From Escherichia coli (GTDB lineage Bacteria; Pseudomonadota; Gammaproteobacteria; Enterobacterales; Enterobacteriaceae), in assembly GCF_030013595.1 (NCBI RefSeq), contig NZ_CP122768.1: 64,000 nt of DNA. One strand, 5' to 3'. The notes under the pieces are model-generated. The model saw only the letters and a program-made list of their open reading frames with translations. It was not told the origin of the DNA and did no database searches. Positions 23,686 to 24,017 of this stretch are shown here, piece after piece; positions within the stretch are counted from its first letter, which is position 1, and every line of letters starts with the position of its first letter. Made by a program: the position numbers and the translations under genes.

Positions 23686-23757
23686 TTGTGATTTTGACAT
23701 TGGTCTATGCGCTCCATTCACGAAAATTGCGCGGATATTTATTTTGTGAAGGCTATT

Positions 23758-23775
23758 ATCCTACATCTGTAAGAA
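23758..23775 (+). promoter_or_regulatory. Candidate EvgA box upstream of ydeP
   Basis: ATCCTACA-TC-TGTAAGAA fits the 18-bp inverted repeat TTCPyTACA-N2-TGTAPuGAA I recall for EvgA. It lies in the loop between 10-bp inverted repeats TTGCGCGGAT (23727-23736) and ATCCGCGCAc (23777-23786). Confidence 0.4.
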
Positions 23776-24017
23776 AATCCGCGCACAATTGAAGCCAGAG
23801 TCTTATTTTTCATATTGAAAAATATGTTAATTTAAACACTATGAGAGATGATGCTTAATTTATCGTATTTAATCTTTTGTTTAACGATAATAGATTAAAA
23901 TAGAAAGAGAGTAGTCCCCTACTCTTATATATCCATGTTGACGATAATCCCTTTGTATATACTGTGCATCATCGCTATTACAAATCCTAATAATTCATTT
24001 CCACACAGGATAAGCAG

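Follow-up and report, generated by a model that had tools for sequence, protein, structure and literature searches.

The spacer separating ydeQ from ydeP in the analyzed DNA (a 64-kb stretch, referred to below as the window) carries at positions 23758-23775 what is almost certainly the known EvgA operator of ydeP, for which we infer EvgA binding from the literature. This operator is framed by a GC-rich 9-bp inverted repeat, which would lie outside the sequence recognized by EvgA and may form a hairpin in plus-strand RNA. It is this explanation as a whole that, on balance, we favor. Its core, i.e. the EvgA operator of ydeP, is already known.

Genetic organization of the region

The analyzed region is a part of the E. 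coli chromosome with the gene order ydeQ–ydeP–safA–ydeO. K-12 MG1655 has the same gene layout, on the minus strand (ydeT-S-R-Q, ydeP, safA, ydeO). The spacer between the annotated genes ydeQ and ydeP was found in 5,327 of 5,426 complete E. coli genomes screened with a 501-bp query.

Pfam searches distinguished a chaperone-usher fimbrial operon upstream of the spacer. It encodes a major subunit (17273-17884), a chaperone (18238-18957), an usher split into two ORFs (18999-19448 and 19387-21651) and minor subunits. The last gene of the operon is ydeQ (22771-23685, plus strand), whose product was identified as a FimH-like adhesin on the basis of its ORF, the FimH_man-bind domain (E = 6e-78) and the RefSeq annotation. 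The two usher ORFs overlap, and each holds part of the PapC_N domain. This points to a frameshift, so this strain probably lacks a functional fimbrial operon. Given the split usher here and the cryptic state of the yde operon in K-12, the 3′ end of the operon may be under weak selection.

Downstream of the spacer lies ydeP (24018-26297, plus strand; ORF, annotation and Pfam), encoding an acid-resistance molybdopterin oxidoreductase, followed by safA (26545-26742) and ydeO (26817-27578), both identified with Pfam. An 11-bp perfect stem with a 9-nt loop (TTCTTCTGCTG / CAGCAGAAGAA, 26311-26342) starts 14 nt past the ydeP stop codon. The sequence that follows it, TTCCTCATTG, lacks a strong U-tract, and the structure is likely the 3′ hairpin of ydeP.

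The EvgA operator of ydeP

An 18-bp inverted repeat, TTCYTACA-NN-TGTARGAA, was reportedly described by Masuda and Church in 2003 and by Itou et al. in 2009 upstream of ydeP, safA/b1500, yfdX, frc, yegR and emrK. The window sequence ATCCTACATCTGTAAGAA at 23758-23775, composed of the half-sites ATCCTACA and TGTAAGAA separated by TC, differs at a single position from the 18-bp consensus TTCYTACANNTGTARGAA. The initial annotation had recognized an EvgA-type inverted repeat here, approximately 240 bp upstream of ydeP, and both the coordinates and the distance hold, as the box ends 243 bp before the ATG codon (24018). When up to two mismatches to the consensus were permitted, only this site and 26416-26433 were matched in the 64 kb (0.04 matches expected), and none of 100 shuffles reached two such matches; at up to three mismatches the test was uninformative. 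The second site, CGCCTACAGCTGTAAGAA, with two mismatches, is the EvgA box of the safA-ydeO promoter, and its earlier description as an EvgA-like box upstream of safA is likewise upheld.

Consensus match, K-12 orthology and geometry all support the assignment of the primary operator. The orthologous place in K-12 carries AGCCTACACCTGTAAGAA, which shows two base differences from the ydeP box of the window; the latter, with T instead of G at position 2, is one base nearer to the consensus. In sequence, target gene and position the window box agrees with the known EvgA regulon, as the orthologue of the K-12 ydeP box, and there is no essential difference between them. Every gene under direct EvgA control has a binding site for the regulator, which in its activated form strongly upregulates the ydeP promoter (PMC4283999), in line with the description of ydeP as EvgA-activated (PMC11210196, PMC4283999). 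Secondary mentions of the EvgA box are found in PMC3720670 and PMC4283999, and inverted repeats at yfdX/yfdW are bound by EvgA, according to the literature. A literature search for EvgA ChIP or SELEX data found nothing relevant.

Mapping of the published 178-nt ydeP leader onto the window places the putative transcription start at 23841 on the plus strand (the A of ATGAGAG; K-12 coordinate 1586664). This start puts the center of the box at -74.5 and, as far as it goes, does not speak against the assignment of the site to the ydeP promoter. An extended -10 element, TGTTAATTT, can be read from the sequence at 23825-23833 on the same strand (-16..-8). Phosphorylated EvgA would bind the primary operator at 23758-23775, at a fixed distance from this promoter core, and so switch on the ydeP promoter.

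Three further features were observed in this part of the window. A SELEX-derived “constitutive” RpoD promoter, TTGAAG-16-TATATT, has been placed in the ydeP-ydeQ spacer (Shimada et al. 2014, PMC3946193), at positions corresponding to 23790-23795 and 23812-23817 of the window; this assignment is other than that of the 178-nt leader, and the -10 hexamer reads CATATT in this strain. A perfect 9-3-9 palindrome, TATTTTTCA-TAT-TGAAAAATA (23804-23824), spans positions -37..-17 of the ydeP promoter. It has one mismatch in K-12, whereas B2-type strains and L008 (a divergent lineage described below) show a partly eroded form. It could be a repressor site or mere AT-rich symmetry. Finally, the 5′ UTR of ydeP contains the stem AGAGTAG-TCCC-CTACTCT (23908-23925; +67..+84), with 7 bp and a 4-nt loop, which a terminator scan calls minus-strand terminator-like; L008 keeps this stem with a loop 2 nt shorter.

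Shared geometry of EvgA-activated promoters

The distance from the end of the EvgA box to the extended -10 element is 53 bp at both ydeP (TGTTAATTT) and safA (TGTTATATT, 26483-26491). The plus-strand safA segment 26434-26503 is collinear with positions 23776-23845 of the ydeP promoter: an ungapped global alignment of these 70 nt, starting immediately after the box, scored 32, compared with -23.6 ± 7.8 for shuffled sequences (0 of 2000 reached this value). The two K-12 promoter copies are identical at 45 of 75 positions over p1-75 (p denotes the position after the box). Upstream of the box the ydeP/safA alignment shows no similarity. Judged from the sequences, the two promoters look like copies of a duplicated module. 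The likeness (23776-23865 versus 26434-26523) reaches the first ~25 transcribed nucleotides, and GATGCTTAA occurs in both.

Six K-12 EvgA promoters (ydeP, safA, emrK, frc, yfdX-proximal and yegR) were compared after anchoring on the box. Five positions are invariant in all six, i.e. CA at p9-10, TC at p26-27 and T at p31, and a further six columns are conserved in at least five. Random-register controls gave a mean of 0.22 invariant columns and never reached five (0 of 5000). No conserved column was found upstream of the box among the six promoters. In L008, too, both the ydeP and the safA promoter have the CA, TC and T at these positions. In the window, the conserved bases occupy 23784-23785, 23801-23802 and 23805-23807 (the K-12 loci are L001, L058 and L059), and the TC..ATT element (plus strand, 23801-23807; p26-27 and p30-32, -40..-34) has TC in six of six promoters and ATT in at least five. 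All six have a -10 around p52-59, and in none is a -35 recognizable. The yegR and ydeP promoters have ATTTAAACACTA..GAGAG in common around the start site. The architecture of the ydeP promoter would thus be the same as that of the safA, emrK, frc, yfdX and yegR promoters.

We propose that EvgA promoters may constitute one fixed-geometry family, derived in part from the ydeP/safA promoter duplication, in which CA at -57/-56 and TC at -40/-39 would replace the -35 element. If true, this implies an unrecognized second contact, made by EvgA or by RNA polymerase. A second contact of such a kind is known for BvgA, the closest homologue of EvgA. Bordetella promoters activated by BvgA have a far-upstream primary inverted-repeat site with further dimers toward -35. 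The ydeP promoter resembles them in its activator site located far upstream (-74.5) and in the conserved positions between this site and the -10 element, but unlike them it has no recognizable secondary EvgA half-sites.

An inverted repeat brackets the operator

The left arm of the repeat, TGCGCGGAT, is located at 23728-23736 (-113..-105 from the ydeP start), outside the module shared with safA. The right arm, ATCCGCGCA, at 23777-23785 (-64..-56), covers p2-p10 downstream of the box, its last two bases being the invariant CA. The initial annotation had described 10-bp arms, and these are present where it placed them: TTGCGCGGAT (23727-23736) and ATCCGCGCAC (23777-23786) are complementary at nine of ten positions, the outermost pair being a T/C mismatch that was already written there in lower case. 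A repeat search extends the arms to 12 nt with 92% complementarity (11/12; 23728-23739 and 23774-23785), of which 9 nt are perfectly paired. The arm centers lie 34.5 bp upstream and 14.5 bp downstream of the EvgA dyad, i.e. asymmetrically. Among the seven K-12 EvgA boxes, only that of ydeP is flanked by the repeat, the other six having flanking repeats of at most 7 nt. We consider it probable that the repeat is irrelevant to activation by EvgA.

The right arm would belong to the promoter module common by descent to ydeP and safA, with the left arm outside it. The safA counterpart of the right arm, ACTCCGCTCA, is identical in E. coli and L008. Promoter function accounts for the conservation of the right arm, which is promoter sequence with the invariant CA.

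The 71-nt element spanning the repeat was found at 5,329 places in 5,323 records (median of one per genome), and the arm 9-mer has no second occurrence in the window. A REP/BIME-like repetitive palindromic element was therefore rejected, the sequence being single-copy per genome. Rfam 15 gave no match at the gathering score, the best hits reaching 15-22 bits against thresholds of 45-100. Small ORFs crossing the arms (21-45 aa) were dismissed, as the indels of L008 do not look frame-preserving. The idea that the left half of the hairpin is an inverted duplicate of the box plus the right arm was also discarded, since comparison by hand revealed nothing beyond the arms and a short inner palindrome.

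The repeat in a divergent lineage and natural variants

A divergent form of the locus was found in a YdeP-based scan of species-representative genomes. This lineage (L008), labelled E. coli, has a spacer about 78% identical to that of the window. A DNA-pattern scan designed to leave out E. coli yielded a near-identical L008-like metagenome contig (L070), the other seven matches being unrelated. L008 has no close relatives among the complete E. coli genomes searched with BLAST, and look-ups of the YdeP and SafA protein clusters returned ordinary E. coli contigs only. Within its diverged spacer, the ydeP box of L008 is identical to that of the window at 16 of 18 positions, with one of the 16 half-site positions changed (ATCCTACG versus ATCCTACA).

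The left arm is identical at all nine positions in L008/L070, amid flanks that are 62% identical and carry 11- and 12-nt insertions (p about 0.013), and a 9-nt conserved run is found elsewhere in the same L008 alignment too. In the right arm a C→T substitution produces a G.U pair, and the outer T/C mismatch has become an A-T pair by changes on both sides. The L008/L070 stem therefore has 12 contiguous pairs on the plus strand, and the minus strand has an A.C mismatch. MAFFT put an L008 insertion inside the left arm, and the stem pairs were therefore tabulated by script. E. coli ST70 carries TGTGCGGAT, a left-arm C→T change that gives a U.G pair on the plus strand only. Both natural arm substitutions are thus wobble-compatible in plus-strand RNA only; the probability that both C→T changes would fall on the plus strand by chance is 0.25. 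Overall, the stem substitutions comprise two that preserve wobble pairing and one gained outer pair, and come from one divergent lineage and one SNP.

IS-mediated rearrangements have affected the locus in two isolates. In BKQ37E (L078), the boundary of IS-associated sequence coincides exactly with the left end of the box, so that the left arm is lost and the box with the downstream promoter is kept. In Z503 (L006), IS1 stands in place of ydeQ and the whole ydeP promoter, to about window position 23929.

Outside Escherichia, the nearest YdeP is encoded by Edwardsiella (85-87% identity), in a different gene neighborhood. No EvgA box was found upstream of the ydeP orthologues of Edwardsiella or Yersinia (L009-L012, including Yersinia rohdei). 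EvgA control of ydeP therefore appears to be specific to Escherichia, which suggests that the gene was acquired horizontally and later recruited into the EvgA regulon in this genus. A YdeP 100% identical to that of the window, together with both EvgA boxes, was found on a contig of a “Candidatus Nanosynbacter” MAG (L007, JARKOR010000108.1); the MAG is almost certainly contaminated here with E. coli DNA.

Possible roles of the repeat

We infer that the only physically plausible joint role of the two arms is in RNA. In plus-strand transcripts reading through ydeQ, the arms would close a stable hairpin of ~58 nt without a U-tract, starting 43 nt past the ydeQ stop codon. The predicted plus-strand fold of the 71-nt segment has a free energy of -19.7 kcal/mol (z = -3.4), and only 2 of 200 shuffles were as stable; the wider 151-nt region folds unremarkably (z = -1.26). 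The stem is kept and lengthened in the one divergent lineage, and the natural substitutions form wobble pairs on the plus strand only; these observations weakly favor a 3′ hairpin of the fimbrial transcript, a role that we regard as possible but tentative.

In E. coli, mRNAs terminated by Rho have 3′ ends that are marked and protected by stable stem-loops lacking a U-tract (Dar & Sorek 2018, PMC6061677). The ydeQ-ydeP hairpin resembles these structures in its stability, its location soon after a stop codon and the absence of an adjacent U-rich stretch. It differs from them in being predicted from sequence, in the lack of C-rich, rut-like sequence next to it and in its partly paired 40-nt interior, which is long for a protective stem-loop. 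The AT-rich region downstream of the hairpin (23786-23865; 26% GC) contains 9 C and 12 G residues (C/G 0.75) and is neither C-rich nor G-poor, so a typical rut site was rejected. The Term-seq supplements of Adams 2021 have no entries for the 3′ ends of ydeQ or ydeP.

If the hairpin is formed, the same DNA stretch would be an operator in DNA and, independently, a 3′ hairpin in RNA. Such dual coding would mean that the same 58 bp comprise the EvgA operator and a 3′ hairpin that lacks a U-tract and is under selection, and that the right arm of this hairpin was recruited from promoter sequence. That the spacer is dual-coded in this manner, and/or that EvgA promoters form a fixed-geometry family with a second contact, is a joint proposal that we hold to be rather doubtful.

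It is also quite conceivable, though short of probable, that the repeat as such is functionless, with the right arm kept as promoter sequence and the left arm matching it by chance or neutral drift. In agreement with this, the homologous safA promoter and five other EvgA boxes lack the repeat, the loss in BKQ37E of everything upstream of the box, left arm included, occurred in a natural strain, and the comparison offers only one independent lineage. A perfect 9-nt inverted repeat with a 10-60-nt spacer arose in 12% of simulated 332-bp spacers of the same composition, and the window contains 33 perfect 9-mer inverted repeats versus 14 ± 4.7 expected, roughly half of them thus being attributable to chance. 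On the other hand, GC-rich 9-nt arms appeared in none of 5000 simulated 332-bp spacers, and a perfect repeat of at least 9 nt flanking a box was obtained in only 0.67% of shuffles. The conservation of the left arm amid poorly conserved flanks and an L008/L070 stem that is longer rather than eroded also argue against this explanation. The flanking repeat itself is real and probably no accident.

Cooperative binding of extra dimers beside a primary site is known for BvgA at the Bordetella fha promoter, and the arms could by analogy be secondary low-affinity EvgA sites beside the primary box. The right arm adjoins the box, its terminal invariant CA follows the CA of the primary left half-site at a distance of 20 bp, and the six promoters have conserved positions between the box and the -10 element. 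However, a weight matrix built from 14 half-sites gave no score of at least 3.5 bits in the arms or downstream of the box, other EvgA promoters lack a counterpart of the left arm, and the GC-rich core is common to ydeP and safA only, which makes secondary EvgA sites unlikely.

The initial annotation had suggested a terminator of the fimbrial operon overlapping the ydeP regulatory site. Like an intrinsic terminator, the repeat provides a GC-rich stem (here of 9 bp) past the final gene of an operon, and there is no other plus-strand candidate between ydeQ and ydeP. The short loop (~3-10 nt) and the plus-strand U-tract that such terminators need are both missing, since the loop has 40 nt and the stem is followed by CAATTGAAGCCA, and a consensus scan of 23500-24200 finds no plus-strand terminator. 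The repeat is therefore not an intrinsic terminator in the classical form, and a Rho-independent role is very unlikely.

A DNA-level element, i.e. a looping site, a cruciform or an operator of a second dimeric protein bracketing EvgA, is equally hard to credit. We know of no E. coli regulator motif recognizable in the arms. The DNA-looping element put forward in the initial annotation is physically implausible for 9-bp arms only 40 bp apart and placed off-center from the EvgA dyad, and a cruciform with a 9-bp stem and a 40-nt loop would be energetically unfavorable. The symmetry of the arms and the reported binding of H-NS to the ydeP-ydeQ spacer (Shimada 2014, PMC3946193) fit such an element, but the substitutions in L008 and ST70 weaken the symmetry of the DNA and keep the wobble pairs of the RNA.

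A minus-strand terminator of a transcript that leaves the ydeP promoter region in antisense or divergent orientation would agree with the tail ATTTTCGTGAAT (AUUUUC after the hairpin in E. coli, UUUUUC in L008) and a fold of -18.6 kcal/mol (z = -4.1), but is very unlikely. No minus-strand gene or promoter is known at the repeat, each of the two natural arm substitutions introduces an A.C mismatch on this strand, L008 shows only a weak fold there (-13.8 kcal/mol, z = -1.9) and the loop again has 40 nt.

Significance for EvgA-dependent regulation

The EvgA box of ydeP belongs to textbook-level knowledge of acid resistance, and its confirmation adds nothing new. If the proposed 3′ hairpin of the fimbrial transcript is true, an activator site and an RNA-end structure would use a common sequence in a compact spacer, which would matter for the engineering or deletion of ydeP promoter fragments. 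The most useful by-product of the analysis is the fixed geometry shared by EvgA promoters. The fixed register, the CA and TC positions and the homology of the ydeP and safA promoters provide concrete targets for mutation in order to learn how EvgA activates transcription from about -74.
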